A stretch of 40,000 nucleotides of DNA from Kordiimonas sediminis (GCF_014656395.1 NZ_BNCI01000001.1:925893-965892), one strand, 5' to 3'; positions 17,428 to 37,650 are shown, counted from the stretch's first letter. Made by a program: numbers and translations. Notes: generated by a model not told the origin, from the sequence alone.

Positions 17428-19464
17428 TTATTCAGCGCCCTTATATTTGTCGAACCATGCAAGGATGTTACCGATCTTCTGAACAAGATTGCTTGGTTTT
17501 GCATAGATGCCGTGGCTGGCACCAGGAATGCGAACCATTGCCGTGTCAATCTTGCGAAGTTTCAGGGCTTGGTAATATTGCTCTGTTTCGGACATTGGGG
17601 TTCTATAATCAACCTCGCCTGTCAGTAACATGGTCGGTGTCGATACATTGCCTACAAGTGATAGGGGCGAACGCTTCCAATAATGATCCGGAATATTCCA
17701 CGGCATGTCCGGGAACCAGTATTTGGTGAAATAGGGGGCCCCGTCAGCCGTTAGCGAGAAGCTGGCCCAGTTGATGACGGGTTTGGCCACAACGGCAGCC
17801 CGGAACCTGTCAGTGTTGCCAACAATCCATGCTGTCAGGACACCGCCCCCGGAACCACCTGTGACATACAGCTGATCTTCGTCGATGTAGCCTTTGGCAA
17901 CGACCTGATCGACCGCATCAATCAGATCATTATAATCTTCTGATGGATAATTATGATGGATCAGATTTGCAAACTCTGCACCGTACGATGTACTGCCCCG
18001 CGGGTTCCCGTACACAACTACATACCCTTTTGCGGCATACATTTGCACTTCTGCTGAGAACGTTGGTCCATAAGCGGAATGGGGTCCACCGTGAATTTCC
18101 AACAGCAGGGGATATTTCTTGGACGGGTCAAAGTCAGGCGGAGTGGCAATCCAGAATTGAAGGTCGCGACCATCATGGCTTGATTTGAAAGTAATTTCAC
18201 TTATCGCAGCCATTTTCTTGTGGGCAAAGACATCTTCATTCAGGCTTGTCAGTGGTGTGACACGGCCAATCCGGTCAACCACAGCCAGATCTGCCGGACG
18301 ATCGGTTCTGTTCTGCGTGAAAACGATGCGGCTGTCCCCGGCAACCGTAAAGTCACCGCTTGTATATGGACGCCCAAGCGACGTGCCGCCTACCTGATTG
18401 GTGATGATACGGCTGGACCCTGCGGTTGATGCATAGGCAACCAATGTTTTGCCGTGATCGTCGTAACTATAGTAGATACCGCGGCCATCAAGGCTCCATT
18501 CAATGCCGCTGACGCCTCTGTCCAGATCATCCGTCAGGCTTCGTTTGCTGGACCCGTCTGCATTCATTACATACAGGTTGGCATTCTGGGACGACATTAA
18601 TGTGTCATCAAAGCCAAGATAGGCGATTTTGCTACCGTCTTTTGAAACTATCGGGGCTGCATCCGGGCCTTTACGGTCAGTCAGGGCACGGTAGTCACCG
18701 GTCAGGGTATCAACAGCATAAATCTCGCTGTCGGTTTCATATTCCCAGTCCTCACTGCGGTTTGCAGACAGCACGATTGTTTTATTGTCAGCCAGCCAGC
18801 CAATAGATCCGCGGTGATGGAAATCGCCGGATGTTACCTGGCGCGGTGTGCCGCCGTCAGCCGGGACAACAAATACATGGGAAAAACCAGTGGGTACATA
18901 GCCTGACCCGTCCCGGCGGTAGGTAACGCTGTCAATAACCTTGGCGTTGCCGGCCCATGTTGCACCCTTGGGTTTTGGTGGCAGGGTAAATAGGGATGTT
19001 TGTTTGCCAGGCACGAACATGCTGAAGGCGATATGTCTGCTGTCAGGCGACCAGGACAAAGACGAGGGCGCCATTTGCAAGTCGGTCACGCGTGCTGTTT
19101 GGCCGCTATCAAGCCAGCGAACATATATTTGTGTTTTACCTTCTACCGCAGACACATAGGCCATGCGCGTTCCGTCAGGCGAAAACCGCGGCATTCTGTA
19201 ACTGGCTTTGCCAGACAAAACTGGCGTGTGTTTCGCGCCGTCCAGTGTAACGGACCAGATGTTCGACCGGGTGCTGTCGGTCATAATGTCCATGGAACGC
19301 CGTTCATAGACAACGGACTTTCCATCCGGTGCCAGCTGGGCGCCAGTTGCATATTCAAGATTGAAAATATCCTGATAGTCCATCGTTGCCGTTTCGGCAG
19401 TCGCTGCCGCAGAAAAAGCAATGGTCAGCGCCGTGGCACCTGCAAACAGGTTGCGTTTCACCAT
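17428..19464 (-). CDS. S9 family serine peptidase (beta-propeller + prolyl oligopeptidase/acylaminoacyl-peptidase catalytic domain)
   Basis: ATG 19464 is preceded by GGGGAG and gives the signal peptide MVKRNLFAGATALTIAFSAAATA. TolB-like propeller repeats. Nucleophile motif GGSGGG, later GEVDYRTP and GASHGI. Confidence 0.9.
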   Translation of the reverse strand: MVKRNLFAGATALTIAFSAAATAETATMDYQDIFNLEYATGAQLAPDGKSVVYERRSMDIMTDSTRSNIWSVTLDGAKHTPVLSGKASYRMPRFSPDGTRMAYVSAVEGKTQIYVRWLDSGQTARVTDLQMAPSSLSWSPDSRHIAFSMFVPGKQTSLFTLPPKPKGATWAGNAKVIDSVTYRRDGSGYVPTGFSHVFVVPADGGTPRQVTSGDFHHRGSIGWLADNKTIVLSANRSEDWEYETDSEIYAVDTLTGDYRALTDRKGPDAAPIVSKDGSKIAYLGFDDTLMSSQNANLYVMNADGSSKRSLTDDLDRGVSGIEWSLDGRGIYYSYDDHGKTLVAYASTAGSSRIITNQVGGTSLGRPYTSGDFTVAGDSRIVFTQNRTDRPADLAVVDRIGRVTPLTSLNEDVFAHKKMAAISEITFKSSHDGRDLQFWIATPPDFDPSKKYPLLLEIHGGPHSAYGPTFSAEVQMYAAKGYVVVYGNPRGSTSYGAEFANLIHHNYPSEDYNDLIDAVDQVVAKGYIDEDQLYVTGGSGGGVLTAWIVGNTDRFRAAVVAKPVINWASFSLTADGAPYFTKYWFPDMPWNIPDHYWKRSPLSLVGNVSTPTMLLTGEVDYRTPMSETEQYYQALKLRKIDTAMVRIPGASHGIYAKPSNLVQKIGNILAWFDKYKGAE

Positions 19465-19621
19465 TTGTCTCCCCATGTAATTATTGTTTGAAGCCGTAAC
19501 CCTACTCAATCGCGGTCTGAAATGCCAGTTCTATGAACCAGATAAATGCGAATGAAAGTCCTGTGAATACTATTTGAAAATCGCTATACAGGGGCGCACG
19601 TAAATATAGGAATGCCACAGA

Positions 19622-19837
19622 ATGCCACTGCCTTATTCAATTCTTTGTCTTGTCCTGACTTTATCCGCCGGGGGTTGGGCCTGGTACCGTGACCGGAACT
19701 ATCAGCCGGGTAATCCGTCTTTGGTTTCACCAAGTTTCGTTCTGACCATGGCCACTATTATTTCTGTTGTATTGATTGCTCAGATTTTTTCACAGCTTAC
19801 AGGGATAACGTGGGATTCGCCCTATATGCGCAGATAA
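19622..19837 (+). CDS. Hypothetical small membrane protein
   Basis: 71-aa ORF with two hydrophobic segments. No homology recognised. Confidence 0.3.
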   Translation: MPLPYSILCLVLTLSAGGWAWYRDRNYQPGNPSLVSPSFVLTMATIISVVLIAQIFSQLTGITWDSPYMRR

Positions 19838-20076
19838 GATAGCTCCGTGCATCTCTGACATGCGGTTGCGCGCTTTCTAAATCTCGGTGGAACTTATGGT
19901 TATTTGAATTTTGTGAGGGGGGGCGGAACCGCAGAATGGGGGGGGAGGTCTACGGTTCCGCTGTGATACAGTTAGATCAAGGGAGCTAATTTGCTGTATC
20001 TGGAATCACTTATACCTTACCCCATCTTAATAATGGGTAAACGGCATGGTTAAATTCAGGACGGTTGTCCAACTTT

Positions 20077-25850: not shown

Positions 25851-25886
25851 GAACAGTACCGGCAGCGTCTGTAGACACAAAAAAGC

Positions 25887-25903
25887 CCCCGCTAGTGCAG
25901 GGG
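25887..25903. repeat. Left copy of target-site duplication CCCCGCTAGTGCAGGGG
   Basis: Identical 17-mer at 35687-35703. The unambiguous core is GCTAGTGCAGGGG; the limits are blurred by adjacent C/G runs. Confidence 0.75.
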
Positions 25904-25932
25904 GGGGTATAGTGATATCTCACAAAAAATAA
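25904..25932. repeat. Left terminal inverted repeat
   Basis: GGGGTATAGTGATATCTCACAAAAAATAA. The reverse complement of 35658-35686 is GGGGTATAGTGATATCTTACAAAAAATAA (28/29 identical). Confidence 0.85.
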
Positions 25933-25956
25933 TTCAACGTGCATCACTGTAAGATT

Positions 25957-25989
25957 AAAGCCGCTTCTCTGAAATGGAGGCGGCTTTTT
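25957..25989 (-). terminator. Hairpin/terminator downstream of the Cas1-membrane protein operon
   Basis: AAAGCCGCTTC...GGAGGCGGCTTT stem (with G-U pairs) flanked by A/T runs, ~30 nt after the stop at 26017. Confidence 0.45.
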
Positions 25990-26016
25990 CTAGTCGGAAC
26001 GAATTAGATAACAGCT

Positions 26017-26691
26017 TTACTTACGATTTGCGAACGCAGACTGTTGCAGTACTGAGCGATATTCTTTTGCCAGTTTTTCCTTCATTTCTGCCTTCAGCCG
26101 TTTTGTGATTAACCTTTTGTATTTCCACCTTTTGAGCCAGTTTATCCCGTACCCACGCAAGAACATTGAAGCTTCACCTCTTGCGGCATTTAGCAGATCA
26201 CTTGGAGCACAATTCACTTCTAGTAATTGTTCTCGTACATGCCATGCCTCCATTTTATGTGGATTGGGGGGAGAGCAAAGGTGGTTCACTATTCTTAGTC
26301 GCCATTTTACGCTGTCGTCAAAAGCAATGACAGCGGCCCTTAGTGCATCAAGTTCAGCCTTGGCAGCATTCAATTTACTTATAAATGGTTTTAAACCGCT
26401 AATAATTTCCTCAAGCAATTTAACAAGTTCATTTTCAAGCTGTTGATCATAAGGTTTGCCTGATGTGTATAGACTGACAAGTTCATCCCCCAACTTTTTC
26501 GACATAGAGATCGATAGTATTGTCTTATCTTTAACATCAGTGTCCAAATACTCAAAAACCGCTGTTGCCAAATCAATTGACGCTTGGCCTCGGTTTTTAA
26601 ATAACCAGTAGTCTTTAATCCAAACAATCCAGATTAATATTATACCTCCAATTATTGAGGCTATAATTGCGCCTATCGTTAAGCCTTCCAT
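26017..26691 (-). CDS. Hypothetical membrane-anchored coiled-coil protein (element cargo)
   Basis: Best start is ATG 26691 (GAGGG 5 nt upstream), giving MEGLTIGAIIASIIGGIILIWIVWI (TM). The listed start 26733 is TTG and overlaps cas1. AT-rich. No family recognised. Confidence 0.5.
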   Translation of the reverse strand: MEGLTIGAIIASIIGGIILIWIVWIKDYWLFKNRGQASIDLATAVFEYLDTDVKDKTILSISMSKKLGDELVSLYTSGKPYDQQLENELVKLLEEIISGLKPFISKLNAAKAELDALRAAVIAFDDSVKWRLRIVNHLCSPPNPHKMEAWHVREQLLEVNCAPSDLLNAARGEASMFLRGYGINWLKRWKYKRLITKRLKAEMKEKLAKEYRSVLQQSAFANRK

Positions 26692-26719
26692 TTGCACCCT
26701 CATCCCAATTAGATCAAGT

Positions 26720-27811
26720 TTAACTCTGAGCAATCAATCTTGCCAACTCAGGTCCAAGTCTGCAAACACCATCTTCCTGCAAGATAAAGTCTGCCCCTGA
26801 GAAGGTTTCTTCCTGAACCAGCTTTAATATAGCCCTGTCAGCTATTGGCCGCTTGGGTTCCATCAGGTCGTAAATAAACGAATGCCGTTCAGCCACCATC
26901 CGGTCGTGCATGATACCAATTGAGGGGTCATAGCCATCTGCGATTGCTTCGATCCTGACACTACTTTCCAGCATCGTATAAGCATAATTCAGCATGGCAT
27001 TCACAGGATGTGTTGCATTGCGGTTTGACGGGGTTGTGAGTACGGCTAACGATGACCGTGAGAAGAAACGCTTCCATTCATCAGGGATAGGATATTTCCC
27101 CTGAGCCTTCCATTTAATATCTAGTGCGCGCCAAGCGAAAAAATAGCCCTGCGCGACCTGTCCTTCATACGCGAGAAGCTTAGATATATCCTGCGGCGGT
27201 TCTTCCTTGAGAAGCTTCAAGGTCGAATGTGCCTGATCAATGGCCTTGTCCCGCGAATGGGAAGCGGGGAGAATGTTTTCGAGATTGTAGAGCGTTTCCT
27301 TGATCTTGCCTTCAATGAGGGGTTTTGCAAACTTCAGCCTGTTTTCCTCGTTGGCCCGTGTCGCAATCTGCCACGTTACTTTCTGACGGTCAGCGGCATA
27401 GCCTGATGCACAGTGAACGGAAGCAATACGTCCATCCCACCGGAGCCTGATAAGGTCAACCTTCTGTTCGCTGAGCCAATCAAGGGCATCAAGGGTGATA
27501 TTGCCAGACCCGTCAACGAGGACAATGCGCGACGGTAAGGACAAATCTCCTTTGAAGAACTGGAACTCCCTGACCTGTTGAGGGAAGTGGGTAAAGCCAC
27601 CACGGACTATCAAGGTTCCTCTATCCACATGTAGGGAAACACCGTTCCCGGTCAGCACTAGGGGGGTCTGTTGTCTCTGCCTTCTTTTGCGTTTGGGGAT
27701 GCCAGCTTCACAGGCGGCAATCCAGTATTGGCAGCGTTCAGACCATTCATCAATCTGAGCTTCAGAGTCGCTTTTTTGAGATAACTGGTTCAATATGCCC
27801 CCTACATTCAA
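26720..27811 (-). CDS. cas1: Cas1 homologue (putative casposase)
   Basis: N-terminal beta domain (LVLTGNGVSLHVDRGTLIVRGG; RIVLVDGSGNITLDALDWL). Helical domain with E216 (LLAYEGQVAQGYF), NAMLNYAYTML, H302 (GIMHD), D315 (IYDLMEPKRPIAD). Start uncertain: TTG 27811, TTG 27793 or GTG 27658. Confidence 0.85.
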   Translation of the reverse strand: MNVGGILNQLSQKSDSEAQIDEWSERCQYWIAACEAGIPKRKRRQRQQTPLVLTGNGVSLHVDRGTLIVRGGFTHFPQQVREFQFFKGDLSLPSRIVLVDGSGNITLDALDWLSEQKVDLIRLRWDGRIASVHCASGYAADRQKVTWQIATRANEENRLKFAKPLIEGKIKETLYNLENILPASHSRDKAIDQAHSTLKLLKEEPPQDISKLLAYEGQVAQGYFFAWRALDIKWKAQGKYPIPDEWKRFFSRSSLAVLTTPSNRNATHPVNAMLNYAYTMLESSVRIEAIADGYDPSIGIMHDRMVAERHSFIYDLMEPKRPIADRAILKLVQEETFSGADFILQEDGVCRLGPELARLIAQS

Positions 27812-27845
27812 ATACTAATAATATCATATTGGATTCTAGCAAAAG

Positions 27846-28487
27846 ATGCAGATTAAGCCACGGAAAATATGGGAAAAAGGCACTGATTTAAATAAGGCTT
27901 GGCTGGAATATGCAACTGAAAATGAGCGTCAGAAGTATCTGGAATTAAATAACCATAAAATGGAATTTGGTAACGATATTGGTCGTAATATTCAGTTAGT
28001 TGGCAACCTTCTTAATAGGCCAAATCAAATTGAGAATTTAAAAGATGAATTACGCAATTCCCTAATTCAGAAATTGAAGAAAGGTGATTTACTTGCATTT
28101 GGGTATTCGATTTATCCCACTCTTGCGGGTGTGGCATCCCGAATAGAGAATGAATTCTGGATGCTGGCTACATGCAAATGGGAAAATGATGAAGCCCATA
28201 GCCGCTTTAAAGCATACCACCGAATTAAAATTATAAATCCAGACCTATTTCCAGATTTGGATTTAATTCCTGAAATTGGCCGACCATCCAAAGCGGCTAT
28301 TAGGGAAAAAGCAATATTGAGATGTATTGATAAAATTCCTGAATTTGAATTATTAACACATAAAGAAAAAGCCGAATTAATTCGTGCGGAAATAAAAGAA
28401 GAAAATCCAGACATAGACCCTTATGGTCCAGGGTATGGGGATGACGTTATTAAAAAGCAGGTAAATAAAATTCTGAAATCAATTTAA
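27846..28487 (+). CDS. Hypothetical protein (element cargo, AT-rich)
   Basis: 213-aa ORF from ATG 27846, divergent from cas1 with only a 34-nt gap. Contains an IGRPSKAAIREKAI segment. No family recognised. Confidence 0.5.
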   Translation: MQIKPRKIWEKGTDLNKAWLEYATENERQKYLELNNHKMEFGNDIGRNIQLVGNLLNRPNQIENLKDELRNSLIQKLKKGDLLAFGYSIYPTLAGVASRIENEFWMLATCKWENDEAHSRFKAYHRIKIINPDLFPDLDLIPEIGRPSKAAIREKAILRCIDKIPEFELLTHKEKAELIRAEIKEENPDIDPYGPGYGDDVIKKQVNKILKSI

Positions 28488-28643
28488 TTGAATTAATTAA
28501 TTTTAATTGGAATTAAGATCAGGAAATCATTTTCAAATAAGTAATTAGAATCAAATAGTTTTTCCCTTTATCCCGACTCCACAGCAACGCAAATTCGCGC
28601 AACGCTTCCTTCAAGTGACGAATCATTTTGAAAGGACGTTAGC

Positions 28644-29222
28644 GTGTCTAAGAAACGCGATTACAAAGCAGAATACAGGAGACGCATTGAGCGTGGCTTA
28701 GCCAGAGGGTTAAGCCGGTCTCAGGCCAGAGGCCACCCCAAAGCTGGGGAGCGTGGCATCACCTCGGGCGTAACAAAACCCACAAGCACCCCGGAGCTTG
28801 AAACAGCCCTGATGCATTTACGCGATGGGCAAACCCAAAAAGATGCTGCCAACAAGGCTGGGGTCTCCACTGACAAGTTCCGGCGGTTTCTTTACGGTAA
28901 TAAGTTGGCTACCCACCAAGGTCGTAAATGGATACTCACAGATGACAGACCAAGACGGGTGGCGGCAATTACAGATGGCCGCATTAAGGCTGTGACTGTC
29001 CCGAACTATTCGGAAGCTGAAAAAGCTGGGTCATTTTACCATGCTGTCAGCAAATTCATTAGTACCAATCAACCAGCCTACCTTCTTCCTTTTCTTGAGG
29101 ATGGTGTCAACGACATTAAGGGCAATTTTATTCCCTTTGAAACTAACCCCAATGAACTCCACCGCATCGCGTCGATGGACACCCCAGACTTTGCTGAAAT
29201 TTATCAAATTATTTCCAATTAA
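28644..29222 (+). CDS. HTH DNA-binding protein with strongly basic N-terminus
   Basis: GTG 28644 is preceded by AAAGGA. N-terminus YKAEYRRRIERGLARGLSRSQARGHPKAGE. Putative HTH QKDAANKAGVSTDKFRRFLYG. First gene of the HTH-HNH-polB cluster. Confidence 0.6.
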   Translation: MSKKRDYKAEYRRRIERGLARGLSRSQARGHPKAGERGITSGVTKPTSTPELETALMHLRDGQTQKDAANKAGVSTDKFRRFLYGNKLATHQGRKWILTDDRPRRVAAITDGRIKAVTVPNYSEAEKAGSFYHAVSKFISTNQPAYLLPFLEDGVNDIKGNFIPFETNPNELHRIASMDTPDFAEIYQIISN

Positions 29223-29233
29223 GGACTTTACCC

Positions 29234-29596
29234 ATGACCAAATACAAACCTGATGCTGAAGACCGCAGAGAACAAAGAATTAGACGACTAGGCTTTGATG
29301 ATCCCATGTGCGTTATCTGCGGAGAAGATTATGTTCTCTGCCTAGAGAAGCACCATGTAGCGGGGCGGAAGTATGATGATACAGAGGTTCCCGTCTGCTG
29401 CAACTGTCACCGCAAGCTTAGTGATAACCAGCTTGATTATCCTGACAGCAACCCCAATCAGGACCGTAACCTTCTGACTATCGGATATTTCCTGATGGGC
29501 CTCTCTGATCTATTTAAACTGCTTGCCGAGAAACTTATGGAGTTTGGCAATCACCTGATCGTCAATGCACACAGTCAGGAGCAGATTGATGAATAG
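29234..29596 (+). CDS. HNH endonuclease
   Basis: CVICG...LEKHHV...VPVCCNCHRKLS (CxxC / HH / CxxCH arrangement). The stop overlaps the polB start. Confidence 0.8.
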   Translation: MTKYKPDAEDRREQRIRRLGFDDPMCVICGEDYVLCLEKHHVAGRKYDDTEVPVCCNCHRKLSDNQLDYPDSNPNQDRNLLTIGYFLMGLSDLFKLLAEKLMEFGNHLIVNAHSQEQIDE

Positions 29597-32294
29597 TCAC
29601 GATATTCAGGAGATTGCAGTTCGTGCCTATACGGAGACACCGGACAGGCAACCCCTTGGCACCAAACCCCGAACGCGAGAGCAACGACCATCTGCCTACT
29701 CCCTCATCTTTGACTGTGAAACAACGGTTGATGCAGCACAGTCACTCAAGGTCGGCTTTTATCAAATCAGGAACAAAACAAGGCTGGCTGAGGAAGGACT
29801 ATTTTATGCGGCAGAGGCGTTAAGCTGCCGTGAAGTTGATCTTCTGGAAGCCTATGCAGAAAGGCATAGCCTACCCCTCAAAACCATTGAGGAGTTCAGA
29901 ACGCGGGTTTTCCTCAAGCATGCCTATTTCCGCAGGGCTTGTGTCGTGGGCTTCAACCTGCCTTTTGATATCTCCCGCATTGCCCTTGGCCACGGTGCCG
30001 CCAGAGGATCGTTCCGGGGTGGCTTTACGTTTAAGCTTTCTGAATACAAAAGTGATCCCTTTGTCCGGGTCAAGCATCTGAGTGCCAGAGCCGCCCTGAT
30101 GGATTTTGCTAGACCCGCCAAGCAGGAAACCACCCGCGGCATGCGGAAGAAAGGTCAAAAGACGCCAGCCTTCCGGGGCTATTTCACCGACCTGAAAACC
30201 TTGGCCGCAGCTCTCACGAGCCGGTCCTTCAGCCTTGATACGCTCGGCAAATATTTAGGCGTCAAAACTGGGAAAATGGAAACCGCAGAACACGGCCAGG
30301 AAATCACTACTGACTATCTCGACTATGCCCGGACAGACGTTCAGACAACATGGGAATGTTACGAGAAGCTGTTAGATATGTATGCAGCGCACAATCTGGA
30401 AACCCCAGCCCATAAAATCCTCAGTGAAGCGAGCCTTGGCAAAGCCTATTTGCAGCTTATGAATATCAAGCCGCTTTTGGCCTCAAACCCCGACTTGGAC
30501 AGGTCCATCTTCGGCACCATTATGTCGAGCTATTACGGGGGCCGAGCCGAGATCAGGATAAGGAAGGAAATCCGGCAGGTTCTCTATGCTGACTTCAAAT
30601 CCATGTATCCAACGGTTAGTGCCCTGATGGGGCTTTGGGCCTTTGTGACCGGGGATGACCTGACTTGGAAAACGTCAACCGACGAAACAAGAAACTTCCT
30701 AAAGACTGTCATCCTTGATGACCTCAAAACAAGAGAGACATGGAAGAAGCTGACAACCCTTGTTCGGGTCAAGCCGGCTGATGATATTTATCCGGTCCGG
30801 GCCAAATACAATAGCCGCGTTCACACCATTGGCTTGAACAAGTTAAGCACAGACCATTCCTTGTGGATGACCCTTGCTGACTGTATTGCCTCGAAAATCC
30901 TTTCTGGCAAAACCCCGGAGATTATTGAGGCCATCAGCTTTGAGCCGGGACAGCCACAACAGGATATGGAGCCGATATGCCTGTTTGGGTCAAATGAGTT
31001 TGCGGTTGATCCATACAGAGATGATGTCTTCACCAAACTGATTGATTTGAGGGACAGGGCCAAGGCTGACAGAAACCCTCTAGAGAAGGCCATCAAGATT
31101 GTCGCCAATTCCACTGGCTACGGCATCTTCATTGAAATTAACCGGGATGACGCCCCAAAGCCCGAACCCGTTAAGGTGTATGATCAGTTTGGCAGCGCAA
31201 GCCTTCAGGACATGAAAGCAATTGAGGAACCCGGCAAATATTTTCATCCGCTTATGGGGACGCTGATCACGGGAGCCGCACGGCTAATGCTGGCCCTAGC
31301 GGAACAGCTAACGCTCAATGAAGGACTTGGTTGGGTATTCTGTGACACTGACAGCATTGCTATGGCCAAGCCAAAGACGATGGCACAGGATGCATTTATC
31401 ACCAAAGCCGAAAGGGTCATCAAATGGTTTGAAAGCCTGAATCCCTACCAGAAGCCCGGATCAATCCTGCAAATGGAAGATACCAACTTTGATAAGGTGA
31501 CAGGAAAACACCTACCTCTTTACTGTCTCGCTATCTCAGCCAAACGCTATGCCCTGTTTAATCGGGACGGTAAAGGCAACCCTGTTCTCAGGAAAGCATC
31601 AGCCCACGGACTAGGGCACTTGAGGCCCCCATACCGCAATGAGGACACTTCAGACGCTGTTCCAGCCCCAACAGTCCCTTTAGGTGAGATTGGGGTGCAA
31701 CGCTGGCAGCATGACCTATGGTACAAGATTATTGAAGCGCATCTGTCAGGCCATCCCAATCAGGTGGCTCTCAATTGGCACCCGACTTTCGACAAGCCCG
31801 CTGTTAGCCGCTACGGAGCCACAAGCCCCCACATGCTTAAATGGATGGACCACTGGAATGCAGGACGGGAATACCCGCAGCAGGTAAGGCCCTTTGGCTT
31901 TATGGTATCCTTCTCAGCCAAGACCGGACCGTTTGCACCACCCCCAGAGGTTAGTCTTGTTGATCCTTCCAAGCGGGGCCGTCCCACAAAGGCTGAGACA
32001 CCCAAGCCGATTGCTCCTTTTGCCAGTGACCACAATGAAGCTGTTGCCAATGCCTTTGACCGCATAAGTGGGGAAGCGGTTGAACAATGCCAGCTTAAAA
32101 CCTACCGCGAAGCCCTGTGCCAGTATCACCTATCAACAGAGGATAAGTTTGATAATGGTGATTTCTGCGACTTCGGGGAGACGACACGACGGCATATCAC
32201 TGCAACCTCAATCAGGCTCGTCGGCAAGGAAGCAAACAAGGTGGGAGAGAGTGGGGAACTGCATCCATTAGCGAGAACTGCGGAGTTTTTCTAA
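29589..32294 (+). CDS. polB: Family B DNA polymerase (casposon-type; protein-primed-like layout)
   Basis: AGGAG 29577-29581 precedes ATG 29589 (ATG 29565 is an alternative). Motifs: ExoI FDCET, ExoII NLPFD, ExoIII YARTD, motif A DFKSMYPT, motif B KIVANSTGYG, motif C FCDTDS, KxY-like SAKRYAL. Confidence 0.9.
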   Translation: MNSHDIQEIAVRAYTETPDRQPLGTKPRTREQRPSAYSLIFDCETTVDAAQSLKVGFYQIRNKTRLAEEGLFYAAEALSCREVDLLEAYAERHSLPLKTIEEFRTRVFLKHAYFRRACVVGFNLPFDISRIALGHGAARGSFRGGFTFKLSEYKSDPFVRVKHLSARAALMDFARPAKQETTRGMRKKGQKTPAFRGYFTDLKTLAAALTSRSFSLDTLGKYLGVKTGKMETAEHGQEITTDYLDYARTDVQTTWECYEKLLDMYAAHNLETPAHKILSEASLGKAYLQLMNIKPLLASNPDLDRSIFGTIMSSYYGGRAEIRIRKEIRQVLYADFKSMYPTVSALMGLWAFVTGDDLTWKTSTDETRNFLKTVILDDLKTRETWKKLTTLVRVKPADDIYPVRAKYNSRVHTIGLNKLSTDHSLWMTLADCIASKILSGKTPEIIEAISFEPGQPQQDMEPICLFGSNEFAVDPYRDDVFTKLIDLRDRAKADRNPLEKAIKIVANSTGYGIFIEINRDDAPKPEPVKVYDQFGSASLQDMKAIEEPGKYFHPLMGTLITGAARLMLALAEQLTLNEGLGWVFCDTDSIAMAKPKTMAQDAFITKAERVIKWFESLNPYQKPGSILQMEDTNFDKVTGKHLPLYCLAISAKRYALFNRDGKGNPVLRKASAHGLGHLRPPYRNEDTSDAVPAPTVPLGEIGVQRWQHDLWYKIIEAHLSGHPNQVALNWHPTFDKPAVSRYGATSPHMLKWMDHWNAGREYPQQVRPFGFMVSFSAKTGPFAPPPEVSLVDPSKRGRPTKAETPKPIAPFASDHNEAVANAFDRISGEAVEQCQLKTYREALCQYHLSTEDKFDNGDFCDFGETTRRHITATSIRLVGKEANKVGESGELHPLARTAEFF

Positions 32295-32387
32295 CTCAGC
32301 TTTGGTCCTTCTATGACGTTTTCTGGATGGAGGTTTATACCTAATGCTACATACTGTTGTATTGGTTCTCTGTTAGCAAATAAATCC

Positions 32388-35138
32388 TTAGGGTTTTTCA
32401 ATCAATTTAATATCTTCTGTCGTTAATCCGTACAGCTCATAAACCATTTTGTCGATTTCACAATCAGTCTGATCAATCTCACTTTTAATATCTAGCACTC
32501 TAGCCTTTTCCTTTTCAAAATACTCCATCCATTCAGACTTTTGAGAAAGCGATAGCTTTGCAGGCTTTATAGACTTTTCAAGTTCCGCTATAAAATCGAA
32601 GAAAGACAATTCGTACCAGATTTCTAGCTTCTTGGACATTCTATCTATTCTGAACTCAGATTTAATCAAACGTCCTAGTTTCTCTCTTGTAGAATTTAAC
32701 ATCTCATTATTTTTTATGATCGAATTTGCTTTATTTACAAATTTTGTCTGTCTTTTTATATCAGTTCTAGGAATGGGATAATTATTTACGTCTTTAATAA
32801 CAGCTTTAGGAAACATGCTGCGATTTCCTTTTACTGCTCTTCTGGAATGGTAAAAACCCATCAAACTAGAATTTAATATGCAAAGCACAAACTTCAACAA
32901 GTAGTCGTTATCCAGAGCAAGAATATTAATAATACTTTTGTTGTTTAAAAATGTGCCCTCAACATATGTAGCTTGTAATAGCTTTGGATATTTCCCAGTT
33001 ATCTCTCGTATTAAAACTCTTGGCCCAGAAAACATAGAAATATCTCGAGGTTGAGATAACCACTTTCCGTATCTTAACCACTTTCCAGACCAGCTTACAT
33101 CATACCTAAGTACATCTTTTCCTTCTAAATATTTAAAAGTATCTTCATCGTATTTATGGTCATAATCATAAATGTGGTCTTTGACGTCTCGGGCAGTTTG
33201 TTTAGGCGTTCCCTTACCTTTCTCGTAAGCCTGCAAGCCAGCTTTTACTTCATAAAAGTTTGATAGTGGCGCATGCGCTTCAATTTTTTTTATTGTCTCT
33301 AACTCTGCACCTGAACTCTGGAGGTCGAAGATATAAGATTCAATTTTCTTCCATTCCTCCTGAGGAGCAGACAAGCATGGTGTTTCCAGTTCTGTAGCCG
33401 AATAGATATTTTTGAAGTTAACTATATTTTTTTTGTTAATTGTGTTTGATGCGCAAAAAATAGCAGCCTCAACATTAGCCCCATCAAATGTATTTCCTAA
33501 TAAATTCAGCACTGTATTTAAAGATACTTTTTCCAAGAGAAATTCTCTGGTCAGCATAGCTGAATCTGTTCCTAAGACAGAATTAGGTACAATATATGAT
33601 AAGTAGCCTTTATCTTTTAATAGAGAAAACCCTAGCTCGATAAAAAGGATGTAGAGATTAATTTTATCCCTCACTAAAGAATAGTTAGCTCCTACATAAT
33701 CCTTAAAATTGTCAAATATATTATCTCTTGACAAAACATATGGAGGATTTCCAACAATTACATCGAATTTACCAGTTTGTATGATTTCGGAGAATTCTGA
33801 GCTCCAATTAAACGCTAAATCTCCGGCAATTTTGTGGTCGTCAATTAGCGAGTTTCCAACTTTGATGTTATCTTCTAAATATGTGAGTTTTTCCTGTCTG
33901 TTAGCTGTTTTAAGCCACAATGATAGCTTCGTTATTTCCACGGATTCGCTATTCAAATCCACTCCATAAATATTATTCGCTAGTATGTGTGTGTCCCAAC
34001 GAAAGAGCGAGATTTGTTCATTCTTCAAATAGGCTAGCTGACTGTTTACCGCTTCACCTTCTTTTTTTAGATAATCAAAAACCTCATTCAAAAATGCCCC
34101 AGAACCACAGGCCGGATCGAGAACCCTTATTTTTGAAAGCGTATTTTTATATGCTTCCCAGAAGTCAATATGTCGCCTAACTTTCTTGGCAATCTGTTGC
34201 CGCTTTGTTTTAAATTCTTGCGTAGTTTTTTTTGTGAAACTTTTGCTTTTAGTATCGACACGGTGAAGATCGAATTCTTCTTCTGTTATCTCAGGTAAGC
34301 TATCCCCGGCGAGTTCTTTCTTCCGGTCATTTAACCAACCACCTACAGCCAGCTCTACAATGTAGCGGGTTATGTATGGAGGAGTATAAAAAACACCGTC
34401 CTTTTTCTTTTTACTTTTTTTCTTGTCTAAAGGTTCTTCTATACCCTCTGCTTTTGCCTTGATCTCTTCAAGGTCGCTAATTGACTGTTCGAAAATATGA
34501 CCAAGAATATTAACGCTTACATCACTCTCAAAATCGTAATCCCCAATCCTCTTGAAGCCCTGACAGAGTTCATCACTAATATTTAGGGTGTCTAGTTCAA
34601 GGGTTTGTTTAAAGAGACCACCATTATATGCAGGAATATTGAGTTCAGAATTGCCTTTATCAATCGCGTGAAACAGGCCTTTAAAATTTTCCCATATCGG
34701 CTGTGGATTATAAGGGTTTTTCGTCGCATAAGCTTGTTTTAAAGTGTCTTTAGGTAATAGCCCTTTGTCTTCTGCAAAAGCGATAAAAAGAACACGATCT
34801 AAGATGGTTTGGGCAAATTGGACTACCTCAATTGGTTCTTGATGAGGATTATCGTCTCCAATTTTTTTGATCAGGTTTGCTCTCAGGTCTTTGTAATCTG
34901 AATATAACTGGTCGGTAATTTCTTTATCAATTTTTTCACTTTCTTTGAGCAAATCATATGTCGTACCCCCCAATAGATTTTTTGCGGAAAGTAATAAAAT
35001 AAAACGCGCATAATCTTTTGGATTGCTTAAGTTGGATAAATCAAAGACCTCATAATCTTTCCGGCCATAACCTACGGCATATAGTCTGAGTTCGCGGTAA
35101 TTGGAGACGCAAACCCATCGTGCACCTTTTGCGTCCAT
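32388..35138 (-). CDS. Type IIG restriction-modification enzyme, large fragment (N6-adenine methyltransferase + specificity domains)
   Basis: Motif I VLDPACGSGAFL, motif IV VGNPPYV, C-terminal tail VYELYGLTTEDIKLIE typical of Eco57I/MmeI-like fused enzymes. AT-rich. Confidence 0.85.
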   Translation of the reverse strand: MDAKGARWVCVSNYRELRLYAVGYGRKDYEVFDLSNLSNPKDYARFILLLSAKNLLGGTTYDLLKESEKIDKEITDQLYSDYKDLRANLIKKIGDDNPHQEPIEVVQFAQTILDRVLFIAFAEDKGLLPKDTLKQAYATKNPYNPQPIWENFKGLFHAIDKGNSELNIPAYNGGLFKQTLELDTLNISDELCQGFKRIGDYDFESDVSVNILGHIFEQSISDLEEIKAKAEGIEEPLDKKKSKKKKDGVFYTPPYITRYIVELAVGGWLNDRKKELAGDSLPEITEEEFDLHRVDTKSKSFTKKTTQEFKTKRQQIAKKVRRHIDFWEAYKNTLSKIRVLDPACGSGAFLNEVFDYLKKEGEAVNSQLAYLKNEQISLFRWDTHILANNIYGVDLNSESVEITKLSLWLKTANRQEKLTYLEDNIKVGNSLIDDHKIAGDLAFNWSSEFSEIIQTGKFDVIVGNPPYVLSRDNIFDNFKDYVGANYSLVRDKINLYILFIELGFSLLKDKGYLSYIVPNSVLGTDSAMLTREFLLEKVSLNTVLNLLGNTFDGANVEAAIFCASNTINKKNIVNFKNIYSATELETPCLSAPQEEWKKIESYIFDLQSSGAELETIKKIEAHAPLSNFYEVKAGLQAYEKGKGTPKQTARDVKDHIYDYDHKYDEDTFKYLEGKDVLRYDVSWSGKWLRYGKWLSQPRDISMFSGPRVLIREITGKYPKLLQATYVEGTFLNNKSIINILALDNDYLLKFVLCILNSSLMGFYHSRRAVKGNRSMFPKAVIKDVNNYPIPRTDIKRQTKFVNKANSIIKNNEMLNSTREKLGRLIKSEFRIDRMSKKLEIWYELSFFDFIAELEKSIKPAKLSLSQKSEWMEYFEKEKARVLDIKSEIDQTDCEIDKMVYELYGLTTEDIKLIEKP

Positions 35139-35153
35139 TGCATATTCCCATGC

Positions 35154-35525
35154 TTATTGGACTGGTGTTTTATAGCGACCCGGCATTATACTATCGAGGT
35201 CTTTTGTCTTGGCACCTTTTAATTCGAATGGTACTTGAATTTTTGTCTCAGTTTCGCTGAACTCCCCTAATGCAACGTCTACATTTCCGCGTCCAACAGG
35301 TTGGTTTTTGGCTACGGTCCAACTATGAGTATCGCTACTTCTTGTATACCCTAAAACCTCAACGAGAATTCGCTGTATGAATACGTCATCGTTCTGAATT
35401 TCACTATCGTATCTTCCAAGTGATAAATTAGTAGCCCACGCCTTAAGTATCTCAGCATGGTTTTCAGGCACTTCATTAATATGTTGTGCGTGTTTCTCAA
35501 CAATTCTTGGATGGAGTAATGCCAT
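35154..35525 (-). CDS. Type IIG enzyme, N-terminal fragment carrying the PD-(D/E)xK nuclease motif
   Basis: GNVDVAL...(19 aa)...PFELKGAK (D...ExK). Ends at TAA 35154-35156, in the same frame as the 32388..35138 ORF. Confidence 0.7.
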   Translation of the reverse strand: MALLHPRIVEKHAQHINEVPENHAEILKAWATNLSLGRYDSEIQNDDVFIQRILVEVLGYTRSSDTHSWTVAKNQPVGRGNVDVALGEFSETETKIQVPFELKGAKTKDLDSIMPGRYKTPVQ

Positions 35526-35657
35526 AAAGAAAATTCAACCAATACTATTGATGGATTTTATTGATTGAACGGTAGCCTACAACATTAATGTTCTCAACTC
35601 TTAATGGATATTATAATTCTAAGACGAAAAGCTCCCCCAACGTTTTAGGAGAGCCAT

Positions 35658-35686
35658 TTATTTTTTGTAAGATATCACTATACCCC
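35658..35686. repeat. Right terminal inverted repeat
   Basis: TTATTTTTTGTAAGATATCACTATACCCC, the inverted partner of 25904-25932. Confidence 0.85.
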
Positions 35687-35703
35687 CCCCGCTAGTGCAG
35701 GGG
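35687..35703. repeat. Right copy of target-site duplication CCCCGCTAGTGCAGGGG
   Basis: Identical to 25887-25903. Confidence 0.75.
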
Positions 35704-35727
35704 CTTTTCTTAATTCTGGAGATCAGA

Positions 35728-37359
35728 CTAGCCGAGTTTTTTCGGCGCAGTCGCTTTTACCGAATCGTCAACATGTGATTCGAACTTTTCAAAGTTCGCA
35801 ACAAACAGTCCAGCCAGGTGATCTGCTTTTGCGTCGTATGCATCTTTGTCCGCCCATGTTTCGCGCGGCGTCAGAATTGCAGAATCAACACCGGCGATCG
35901 CTGTTGGTACTTCAAAGCCGAATCGCTCATCAACACGCATGGATACGTCATTCAGGCTACCGTCCAGCGCAGCATGAAGCATCGCGCGGGTCTGCTTGAT
36001 AGGCATCCGGTGTCCTGTGCCGTACTCGCCGCCGGTCCAGCCAGTGTTAACAAGCCAGCATCTTACGTTACCTTCTGCGATTTTCTTGCGCAGCAGGTCA
36101 CCGTAAACAGCAGGGTGGCGCGGCATGAACGGGCCGCCAAAACATGCAGAGAAAGTCGCCTGCGGCTCTTTCACGCCAATCTCGGTACCCGCAACCTTGG
36201 CCGTGTAACCAGACAGGAAGTGATACATTGCCTGTTCCGGAGAAAGGCGGGAGATTGGAGGCAGGACACCAAAGGCATCAGCGGTAAGCATGATGATGTT
36301 TGTTGGCTTGCCGCCGCGGTTTTCCTCGGACGTGTTAGGAATAGACGTCAATGGATAGGCCGCGCGCGTGTTTTCTGCCAAACTATTGTCAAACAGGTCC
36401 AGTTCGCGGGTTGCTTCGTCCATCACCACATTTTCTACAACTGTCCCGAACATGTGGGTCGTTGCATAAATTTCCGGTTCTGCTTCGGCGCTGAGGTTGA
36501 TCAGCTTGGCGTAACAGCCGCCTTCGAAGTTGAAGACACTGTCATCAGACCAGCCGTGCTCGTCATCACCGATCAGGGTACGGCTGCTGTCCGCGGACAG
36601 GGTTGTCTTCCCGGTGCCAGACAGGCCAAAGAAGATCGCTACATCACCGTCCGGGCCGATGTTGGCGGAACAGTGCATTGGCATGACACCCTTTGGTGGC
36701 AGCAGATAATTGAGGATGGAGAAGACAGACTTCTTATTTTCACCGGCATATTCAGTGCCGCCGATAAGAACCAGTCCTTTGGAGAAGTTCACCGCGATAA
36801 TTGTTTCAGAACGGCAACCCATTGTTTCAGGATCAGCGCGGAAACTTGGCAGGTTAATGATTGTGAACTGCGGTGCCATATCCGCCATTTCACCGGCTTC
36901 CGGTTCGATCAGCATAGTCCGGCAAAACAGGCTGTGCCATGCATATTCGCCGACTGTCCGTACCGCAATACGGTGGGTAGGATCGCTACCGCCCCAAAGG
37001 TCCTGAATGAACAGTTCCTTGTCTTTCATATGATCCTGGAAAGCAGTGTAGATACGGTCAAAGTTTTCCGGTGTCATTGGGCGGTTAACATCGCCCCACC
37101 ATACAGTATCTTCAGTGGTTTCATCCCGAACTGTAAATTTGTCATTCGCAGAGCGACCGGTATGCTTGCCTGTTTTTACAACAAGTGGACCGTCTTTTGC
37201 GAGAGAGCCTTCGCCGCGGCGGATGGCTTCTTCATACAGTTGTTCGGTGGTCAAGTTCCAATATTGGTTGCCAGTCTTCGTGATGCCCTGAGCATCCAAG
37301 TCGACTTTACTATGGCGGGAGCCGTATACTTGCACGGTAATTGTCTCCGTTGCTATCAC
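35728..37359 (-). CDS. pckA: Phosphoenolpyruvate carboxykinase (ATP)
   Basis: [14 protein letters not shown], the kinase-1a loop [11 protein letters not shown], and overall PckA length. The start is GTG 37359, or GTG 37335 (GGAGA upstream). Confidence 0.95.
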
Positions 37360-37650
37360 GCTACTGGAGCGTGGTTAGTGGATAAATTCTGTGTTCCGGG
37401 GGGCGACGCGCGTTCCCGGTGTTTGTCCCTTTCTGGGGAATGGTATTATTGCCAGCCTTCAGACAGGTGGCTTAAAATTGCTGAATTTAATTTGAAAATC
37501 AACCTGTTTCTGGTCATGGGTGGGGACAATTGGTATTATGCCATTTCATGGTCGTGTCTCTGTCACTTTTTTGTCGTATTCTTTTTTCAATCTCATTTGT
37601 GGTAAGCTACACATATTACTGAATTAATTGATGTATCAGCGAGGAATTTC

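Follow-up and report, generated by a model that had tools for sequence, protein, structure and literature searches.

Casposons have been proposed as the ancestors of the CRISPR adaptation module. The family-B DNA polymerases (PolBs) of casposon families 2 and 3 were placed beside archaeal PolB3 by BLASTP and phylogeny and were called RNA-primed (Krupovic et al. 2014, 2016), and the 2014 tree joins the family 3 enzymes to those of family 2. Later, the PolB of the A. boonei casposon was assigned to a small cluster, PolB_CDTDS, which is named after its motif C, is related to both the main PolB and the protein-primed PolB (pPolB) groups, and was kept apart from PolBmain (Kazlauskas, Krupovic et al. 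2020, NAR). A gene for an HNH protein is a hallmark of family 2 and 3 casposons (Krupovic et al. 2014). The gene table of HenMar-C1 lists Cas1, a MerR-like helix-turn-helix (HTH) protein, a second HTH protein, an HNH/zinc-binding domain (HNH/ZBD) protein and PolB. The terminal inverted repeat (TIR) of NitAL212-C1 begins with GGGGTATGTTAAC... and its target duplication is 14 bp long, and the TIR of the family 2 casposon MetMaz-C1 begins with GGGATATAGGTAAC.... The 2016 survey found casposons in a "handful of bacterial genomes" and described the cargo of HypCY54-C1 as a resolvase and ParB (Krupovic et al. 2016). Here we analyse a PolB gene (29589..32294, + strand) in a 40,000-nt stretch of Kordiimonas sediminis DNA (NZ_BNCI01000001.1:925893-965892), the whole of which is referred to as the window. 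The gene very probably encodes the replicative, proofreading PolB of an intact family 3 casposon of the HenMar-C1/HypCY54-C1 type, inserted in a terminator hairpin of the chromosome. The best overall explanation of the locus, to which we give slightly less than an even chance, is a casposon PolB of pPolB-type architecture that replicates the element by strand displacement from a DNA 3'-OH.

The polymerase gene and its casposon family

Over residues 3-901 the window PolB shares 51% identity with its counterpart from a Hyphomonas sp. CY54-11-8 locus (L017), and it shares 48% with that from a Henriciella locus. Since L017 comes from the same strain as the published HypCY54-C1 and carries serine recombinase and ParB/RepB genes between its TIRs, in agreement with the resolvase/ParB cargo, the two are the same element. 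Using the casposase sequences published in the supplement of PMC4046053, BLASTP aligned the window casposase with that of HenMar-C1 at 45% identity (E 4e-102) and with the other published casposases at 25-31%. The gene order Cas1-HTH-HTH-HNH-PolB also matches HenMar-C1, which supports the assignment to family 3. When PolB relatives were scanned in one genome per GTDB species, 79 loci were kept, and in these the Cas1 gene (69 loci), the gene for a 192-aa protein (76 loci) and the HNH gene (75 loci) always occur in the same order; the misses arise because contigs end just upstream of PolB. All 68 casposases in the related loci have HenMar-C1 as their best match. In addition, the terminal motif of the window TIR resembles the TIRs of NitAL212-C1, with which it shares the initial GGGGTAT, and MetMaz-C1.

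The locus therefore holds a Cas1-solo gene with a family-3-like product, a PolB gene, TIRs with a target duplication, and an HNH gene, and the HTH assignment is weak. Like HenMar-C1, HypCY54-C1, CitBat-C1 and NitAL212-C1, it shows full-length orthology of the PolB and the same core gene order, and like other family 3 casposons it is inserted between genes. It differs from the published members in its host order, Kordiimonadales, and in its type IIG restriction-modification cargo, and its PolB lacks the C-terminal HTH fusion of the NitAL212-C1 enzyme. The original prediction regarded such a polymerase as notable in a bacterial element. Because of the full-length identity to the HypCY54-C1 PolB and the HenMar-C1 gene order, the enzyme is instead the usual PolB of family 3 casposons, a type known from publications of 2014-2016. 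The element and the polymerase lineage are thus already described, and the present result refines existing knowledge rather than constituting a discovery.

The PolB open reading frame (ORF; 29565..32294, + strand) is uninterrupted and encodes a complete family-B polymerase of 909 aa. Its native start is probably ATG 29589, which gives 901 aa, because an AGGAG Shine-Dalgarno sequence lies 7 nt upstream, the gene then overlaps the HNH gene by 8 nt, and the N-termini of homologues match; their pattern M-x7-IAVRAY is reproduced by this start. Residue numbers used here are counted from ATG 29565, and are 8 too high if ATG 29589 is the start. The seven motifs predicted from the DNA were all found in order at the predicted positions, namely ExoI FDCET (aa 49-53, with D50 and E52), ExoII NLPFD (aa 131-135), ExoIII YARTD (aa 254-258), motif A DFKSMYPT (aa 343-350), motif B KIVANSTGYG (aa 511-520), motif C FCDTDS (aa 592-597) and the KxY motif SAKRYAL (aa 658-664). 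Conservation was assessed in two alignments, of 33 close and 25 divergent homologues, reaching down to 32% identity. The exonuclease residues D50, E52, N131, D135, Y254 and D258 and the polymerase residues D343, K511, Y519, G520, D594, D596, K660 and Y662 are invariant or at least 90% conserved in both; within motif C, C593 is at least 90% conserved, and D594, T595 and D596 are invariant. Every catalytic site of the enzyme is under purifying selection. In profile alignments ExoII, ExoIII and motifs A, B and C register with the phi29 motifs, KxY registers with the PRD1 KLY, and the motifs also register with those of E. coli Pol II, so that the motif assignments hold against all three profiles as well as across the homologues.

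Architecture and placement of the polymerase

An AlphaFold2 model of PolB was built with 33 sequences (predicted local distance difference test score, pLDDT, 89; predicted template modelling score, pTM, 0.88). On the model, the exonuclease domain (aa ~45-300) is followed by the palm with motif A (aa 325-362), a TPR1-like insertion (30651..31025, aa ~363-487) between the motif A helix and the fingers, the fingers with motif B (aa 488-523), a TPR2-like beta-hairpin (31137..31232, aa 525-556) between motif B and the palm helix preceding motif C, the palm with motif C and KxY (aa 557-690), and a thumb/C-terminal region (31635..32291, aa 691-909) that ends with the conserved LIGKEAN.VGE.GE; all lie on the + strand.

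The N-terminus of the modelled enzyme is short. ExoI is located at position 50, compared with 9-17 in phi29 and PRD1 and 156 in Pol II, and counting from the native start brings it even nearer to the N-terminus (position 42, D42/E44). About 45 aa precede ExoI in the model, and, as had been predicted, there is no separate N-terminal domain; the N-terminal domain typical of RNA-primed PolBs (rPolBs) is absent and ExoI lies near the N-terminus, as in pPolBs. The N-terminal domain and the uninterrupted palm-fingers-palm of Pol II and archaeal PolB3 were both missing from the window PolB. The long motif spacings of the original prediction were measured as 168 aa from A to B and 83 aa from B to C, compared with 134/73 in phi29, ~120/88 in PRD1 and 74/52 in E. 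coli Pol II.

These spacings accommodate two inserts. At the TPR1 position the model shows a mixed alpha/beta subdomain of ~125 aa between the motif A helix and the helices H488-501 and H507-516; the insert, of ~90-125 aa, partly aligns to phi29 TPR1, at low alignment confidence. At the TPR2 position it shows a 32-aa beta-hairpin with strands E525-539/E545-556. When aligned to E. coli Pol II by hhalign, PolB has query-only inserts of ~89 aa within 367-493 and 30 aa within 523-554. The phi29 counterparts of the inserts align in blocks and span residues 267-351 and 392-425 in the RefSeq count; canonical positions are 3 higher, which puts the first stretch inside TPR1 (261-358) and the second across TPR2 (398-420). 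To phi29 392-425 the TPR2-like stretch aligns with hardly a gap, and Pol II and archaeal PolB lack it. Similarly, 139 aa separate motif A from the fingers in the family profile and 40 aa do so in archaeal (Thermococcus) PolB; between motif B and the palm helix there are 38 aa in the former and 8 aa in the latter.

Structural searches with Foldseek pointed in the same direction. Among the structures in the PDB, phi29 DNA polymerase ranks first (E 5e-13, template modelling score, TM-score, on the target 0.52), and Pol II, Pol alpha and archaeal PolBs come next (E 5e-12 to 1e-10, TM-scores 0.3-0.4). Among the viral models of BFVD, the best matches are His1 (5e-17), a tectivirus (5e-16) and GA-1 (2e-14), then SEV1 and adenovirus, all of which are protein-primed, while viral RNA-primed PolBs begin near 1e-11, 3-6 logs behind His1, the tectivirus and GA-1. 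Meanwhile, the window PolB belongs to Pfam DNA_pol_B_2, above the gathering threshold. The modelled architecture is therefore likely to be that of a protein-primed-type PolB, without an N-terminal domain and with a TPR1-position subdomain and a TPR2-position beta-hairpin, in line with the phi29-type layout that had been claimed for it.

Several observations weigh against this reading. The TM-scores to all solved PolBs are low globally (0.3-0.5), Pol II and Pol alpha lie within about one log of E-value of phi29 in the PDB search, and the probability of the phi29 profile alignment is only 15%. The proposed equivalence with TPR1 and TPR2 draws on position, gap pattern and secondary structure, not on residue-level superposition. 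When the family profile was compared with the PDB, archaeal PolB was matched and phi29 was not. Finally, the putative membership in PolB_CDTDS follows from orthology to family 3 PolBs and not from direct clustering with the A. boonei enzyme.

In sequence, the PolB family is equidistant from pPolBs and rPolBs, which agrees with the published description of PolB_CDTDS as related to both. The hhalign scores of the family are 61-64 with PRD1, His2 and Pol II and 36 with phi29, and of 25 family members 15 match Pfam DNA_pol_B_2 and 13 match DNA_pol_B. The PDB chains that the family profile matched are those of archaeal PolB and Pol alpha, through fingers/motif B and motif C (E 2e-7 to 1e-6), and matches of this kind to archaeal PolB fingers and palm account for the label RNA-primed in the literature. 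A single-sequence phmmer search with PolB against the PDB sequences gave no match, and a tblastn search of 50,697 phage and archaeal-virus records returned as sole matches weak hits to His2/Hardyhisp2, which encode His2-type pPolBs. Motif C is FCDTDS in the window PolB, YCDTDS in phi29 and PRD1, and GDTDS in Pol II. The enzyme thus shares with the PolB_CDTDS cluster the CDTDS motif C, its encoding by a casposon and relations of similar strength to pPolBs and main-group PolBs; since phi29 and PRD1 also have CDTDS, the motif alone is not diagnostic.

The likeness to pPolBs (phi29 gp2, PRD1 P1, His1/His2, GA-1 and adenovirus) comprises the best structural matches, the lack of an N-terminal domain, the inserts at both TPR positions, the YCDTDS-type motif C, the Pfam family and the location on a TIR-bearing element. 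On the other hand, identity to pPolBs is only 12-15%, no terminal protein was identified for the window PolB, and its element is a transposon in the chromosome that a casposase mobilises. In comparison with phi29 DNA polymerase, the window PolB is ~330 aa longer, with a conserved C-terminal region of ~220 aa, and its TPR1-like region is ~30-40 aa longer. With the RNA/DNA-primed PolBs (E. coli Pol II, archaeal PolB1/PolB3) it shares the fingers/motif B and palm/motif C sequence, and its KRYA motif is identical to that of Pol II, but it differs from Pol II and archaeal PolB in lacking the N-terminal domain and a clamp-binding tail and in being longer by ~89 residues at the TPR1 position and by 30 at the TPR2 position. 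The pPolB-type layout of the model therefore stands in contrast to the RNA-primed label that family 3 PolBs carry in the literature, and in the literature searched we found no report of TPR subdomains in family 2/3 casposon PolBs.

The ~240 aa after KxY had been noted as carrying no recognisable motif. In agreement with this, the C-terminal ~220 aa gave no Pfam match at E <= 5, and when they were modelled alone (pLDDT 74), Foldseek found no neighbour in the PDB (best E 1.5). The region is nevertheless strongly conserved, being among the best-conserved parts of PolB, with many invariant W, H, R and G residues; W714, W719, N765, P776, E859, K861 and G887-K888-E889 (in LIGKEAN) do not vary among homologues as distant as 32% identity. 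The thumb and a lineage-specific extension probably make up this region. Distant members of the family carry appended HTH or zinc-ribbon tails, which echo the published PolB-HTH fusions. A separate feature of the model is a basic loop of lower confidence, PAKQETTRGMRKKGQKTPAFRG, in the exonuclease domain (aa ~182-205, window 29745-30180), where residues 190-209 are query-only in the comparison with phi29 and the pLDDT is ~71.

Priming and replication of the element

The beta-hairpin of TPR2 gives phi29 DNA polymerase its clamp-independent processivity and strand displacement. By analogy, the TPR2-position hairpin of the window PolB may confer the same two properties, and on this basis we propose, tentatively and as a possibility that falls short of probable, that the enzyme is primed from DNA 3'-OH ends and proceeds with strand displacement. 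The casposase and/or the co-translated HNH nuclease would expose 3'-OH ends at the GGGG...CCCC termini, and the casposase would join the ends to the target hairpin, producing gaps as long as the target duplication. PolB would then copy the element by processive strand displacement from an existing DNA 3'-OH, either in the target flank or derived from a nick; a target 3'-OH flanking the integration gaps would serve as primer in a manner like replicative transposition. Copying without clamp, helicase or host primase would yield the new copy ("self-synthesis"). Hints for this route are the overlap of the HNH and PolB genes and their adjacency in 75 of the 79 loci, and the lack of a beta-clamp motif in PolB, in which neither a clamp-binding motif nor a clamp-binding tail was found. 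No primase gene is present in the element, and none is conserved in the 79 loci. The casposase is known to use the 3'-OH at the terminus and to bind the CCC found there; the structure of the M. mazei casposase with DNA shows the enzyme gripping the three 3'-C residues at the end (Hickman et al. 2020). Against the proposal it must be said that the priming mode of family 2/3 casposon PolBs is purely inferred.

The alternative that survives best is protein priming, which we regard as unlikely although much of the architecture favours it. A casposon terminal protein would provide a Ser, Thr or Tyr hydroxyl, synthesis would start opposite 3'-CCCC and slide back, and the excised linear element would be copied by strand displacement, as in phi29 or PRD1. 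The candidate terminal protein is the 192-aa protein (28644-29222), the HNH protein being less probable. This alternative draws on the structural neighbours, the top ones being all protein-primed, and on the TPR1/TPR2-position subdomains, the missing N-terminal domain and Pfam DNA_pol_B_2, and it is consistent with the His2-type pPolBs as the only phage or archaeal-virus matches in tblastn. Conserved small genes lie just upstream of polB, the usual place of terminal-protein genes, and family 1 casposons carry bona fide pPolBs (Krupovic et al. 2014). However, piPolBs, the primer-independent PolBs, have TPR1 and TPR2 as well and use no terminal protein, and the fingers/palm sequence of the window PolB is closer to archaeal PolB. 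Scans with Pfam, NCBIfam and PHROG revealed no resemblance to terminal proteins among the conserved upstream genes, whose products are HTH-like or HNH-like and are shared with family 2; the lack of a recognisable terminal protein counts against protein priming, although the divergence among terminal proteins is too great to prove that none is encoded. In addition, known pPolB elements are as a rule linear viruses or plasmids, but no member of the family turned up among 2.9 million viral contigs or 72,556 plasmids. Therefore, of the phi29-type reading in the original prediction the architecture stands, but protein-primed function does not follow from it.

The ends of the element bear on the same question. 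The TIRs carry a terminal G4 run, and the inverted terminal repeat of PRD1 also starts with GGGG, which is a weak point for protein priming, at the level of coincidence given the casposase contacts with CCC. The terminal GGG/CCC is already explained by these contacts and is kept across families 2 and 3. It had been suggested that the GGGG terminus could suit sliding-back initiation; this is not needed, because the casposase grips the terminal 3'-C residues directly and the conservation of the G-run in casposon families 2 and 3 is explained in that way.

Priming by host RNA has a lower chance still. According to this explanation, PolB branched off from archaeal PolB3-like replicases and extends RNA primers made by the host primase on the excised single- or double-stranded casposon. 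The PDB match of the family profile to chains of archaeal PolB and Pol alpha (best 2e-7, in fingers/motif B and motif C), the match of 13 of the 25 members to DNA_pol_B, a Pol II hhalign score as high as those of PRD1 and His2, and the published placement of family 2/3 PolBs beside archaeal PolB3 all speak for it. Yet the rPolB N-terminal domain is absent, large inserts lie at exactly the two positions that separate pPolB/piPolB from rPolB, pPolBs lead the structural neighbours, a clamp-binding motif is missing, the element and the 79 loci offer no primase, present or conserved, and PolB_CDTDS was kept apart from PolBmain by Kazlauskas et al.

De novo chain start on the casposon template, as by the piPolBs of pipolins, is very improbable: like a pipolin the window element is a bacterial integrative self-replicating element with a compact PolB, TPR1/TPR2-type subdomains and neither primase nor recognisable terminal protein, but the enzyme has DTDS instead of TTDG in motif C, KRY (KxY) instead of KTRG and no KH-x8-KTRG motif, and the element has a casposase instead of a tyrosine integrase. 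Identity as a piPolB was rejected on the invariant DTDS and KRY. Modes other than DNA 3'-OH, protein, host RNA and de novo priming account for the remainder of the probability.

Ends, gene content and distribution of the element

The element measures ~9.8 kb (about 25904-35686) and forms a low-GC island (0.36-0.48, compared with ~0.52 in the flanks). Its TIRs are 29 nt long with one mismatch and start with GGGGTATAG; the consensus is GGGGTATAGTGATATCT(C/T)ACAAAAAATAA. The left TIR, GGGGTATAGTGATATCTCACAAAAAATAA (25904..25932, + strand), differs at one position from the reverse complement of the right TIR (35658..35686, - strand), which is GGGGTATAGTGATATCTTACAAAAAATAA. The terminal motif G(4-8)TATAG(T/A)GATA is kept in more than 25 related elements. 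The TIRs are flanked by identical direct repeats, CCCCGCTAGTGCAGGGG, at 25887..25903 and 35687..35703, which represent the target-site duplication; its length is 17 nt if the termini are symmetric, with an ambiguity of 14-18 nt because of flanking C/G runs.

The rebuilt empty site, AAAAAAGCCCCC-GCTAGTGCA-GGGGCTTTT, folds into a hairpin (-18.7 kcal/mol) that resembles a bidirectional terminator; the host genes flanking it, one for a GNAT acetyltransferase and the other pckA, are convergent. A ChvI/ChvG-like pair adjoins pckA, which fits an alphaproteobacterium. An empty site was sought at LepA-anchored loci of Kordiimonas lipolytica and K. pumila and was not found, the GNAT-pckA junction not being conserved there. 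No tRNA genes occur in the window, and a tRNA as insertion target was thereby ruled out; no CRISPR array or other cas genes were found next to Cas1. The element duplicates the hairpin loop and part of the stem (window 25870-25903 and 35687-35725), and a palindrome duplicated in this way looks like an inverted repeat, so that automatic TIR calls come out too long (e.g. a 65-nt "I1"). Many of the related loci (among L001-L075) repeat the pattern of an A-run, a GC stem, a loop, a GC stem merging into the G-run of the TIR, and a T-run. This suggests that family 3 casposases may prefer hairpin or terminator targets.

The casposase (Cas1-solo, 363 aa) is encoded at 26720..27811 on the - strand and matches Pfam Cas_Cas1 (3e-36) and TIGR00287. 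A 238-aa ORF beside it (26017..26733, - strand) has no match in Pfam, NCBIfam, PHROG or PADLOC and occurs in none of the 79 related loci; given this lack of conservation, it is probably cargo. On the far side of the casposase gene, a poorly conserved 213-aa ORF (27846..28487, + strand) without family match sits where HenMar-C1 has its MerR-like HTH gene; tblastn recovered it in 12 of the 79 loci. The conserved 192-aa core protein (28644..29222, + strand) has a basic N-terminus and is 30-62% identical among the loci. It is probably an HTH DNA-binding protein, as suggested by a weak match to HTH_29 (E 0.023) and by its position, which equals that of the HTH gene of HenMar-C1 and NitAL212-C1. The HNH/zinc-binding nuclease (120 aa, 29234..29596, + strand) matches PHROG HNH endonuclease families (1e-4) and has the pattern CxxC...HH...CxxH; its gene lies directly upstream of PolB in the 75 loci that carry it and overlaps the PolB start, and the two genes are translationally coupled.

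On the other side of PolB, the element carries a cargo module (32388-35525) with a GC content of 0.36-0.38, compared with ~0.52 in the host. Its main gene encodes a defence protein, a type IIG restriction enzyme-methyltransferase (MmeI/Eco57I-like, 916 aa, 32388..35138, - strand; PADLOC REase_MTase_IIG 2e-126; Pfam Eco57I, N6_Mtase, MmeI_Mtase and TaqI_C), which was found in one of the 79 related loci. A 123-aa ORF beside it (35154..35525, - strand) had no match in any library. Outside the element, a 595-aa ORF (35818-37605, + strand) without family match runs antisense to pckA (35728-37359, Pfam 7e-219) and is almost certainly a spurious shadow ORF.

PolB relatives are present in at least 467 species-level genomes, and a representative search returned 4,045 clusters at 50% identity, 1,214 of them with E <= 1e-30. 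The hosts are mostly Alphaproteobacteria and also include Nitrosomonas, Gammaproteobacteria, Bdellovibrionales, Chthoniobacteraceae, Binataceae and an Actinomycetes metagenome-assembled genome (MAG). The bacterial spread of the family is therefore far wider than the "handful" of 2016. No PolB relative was found when the 2.9 million viral contigs were scanned, nor in the plasmids by tblastn. More than one copy per genome occurs in Marinicauda salina, a Sphingobium MAG, Sphingomonas antarctica and an Acetobacteraceae MAG, which is consistent with ongoing mobility or recent transposition in bacteria; two casposon cores per genome or contig were seen in the pairs L008/L010, L019/L027, L029/L055 and L036/L042.

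Some further observations concern single elements. HypCY54-C1 (2615-6233 of L017) carries ABC-three-component (ABC-3C) cargo beside Cas1, with CTD7, MC3 and DUF3732/AAA proteins, a defence-type payload. An element of an uncultured alphaproteobacterium (L023) has inverted terminal repeats of ~2.4 kb (168-2562 and 17641-20035) that start with GGGGTAAAGAGATC and are far longer than the usual 30-60 nt. In a collection of 5.8 billion proteins, the best match of the window PolB is 61% identical, though the host LepA is present at 100%; either the PolB was not called or deposited as a protein, or the casposon is missing from the deposited assembly.

The decade-long label of family 2/3 PolBs as RNA-primed conflicts with the structural layout modelled here. 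It is conceivable, although doubtful, that the family 2/3 casposon PolB lineage (PolB_CDTDS) consists of pPolB-architecture enzymes which start synthesis without host primase, by means of a casposon protein such as the 192-aa protein or by another self-contained route. If so, most casposons, and not only the thaumarchaeal family 1, would be genuinely self-priming replicons, and the PolB_CDTDS lineage would be a structural intermediate between protein-primed and RNA-primed PolBs. The origin of transposition-competent casposon ends has been called "a mystery" (Hickman et al. 2020), and the question treated here bears on how casposons make the copy they insert. An intact bacterial locus with a compact, phi29-like polymerase model leads to a testable hypothesis, namely clamp-independent strand displacement, with protein, 3'-OH or RNA priming as alternatives. 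The value of the analysis lies in this sharpened replication hypothesis, in the wider bacterial distribution of the family and in the insertion preference for terminator hairpins that the loci suggest.

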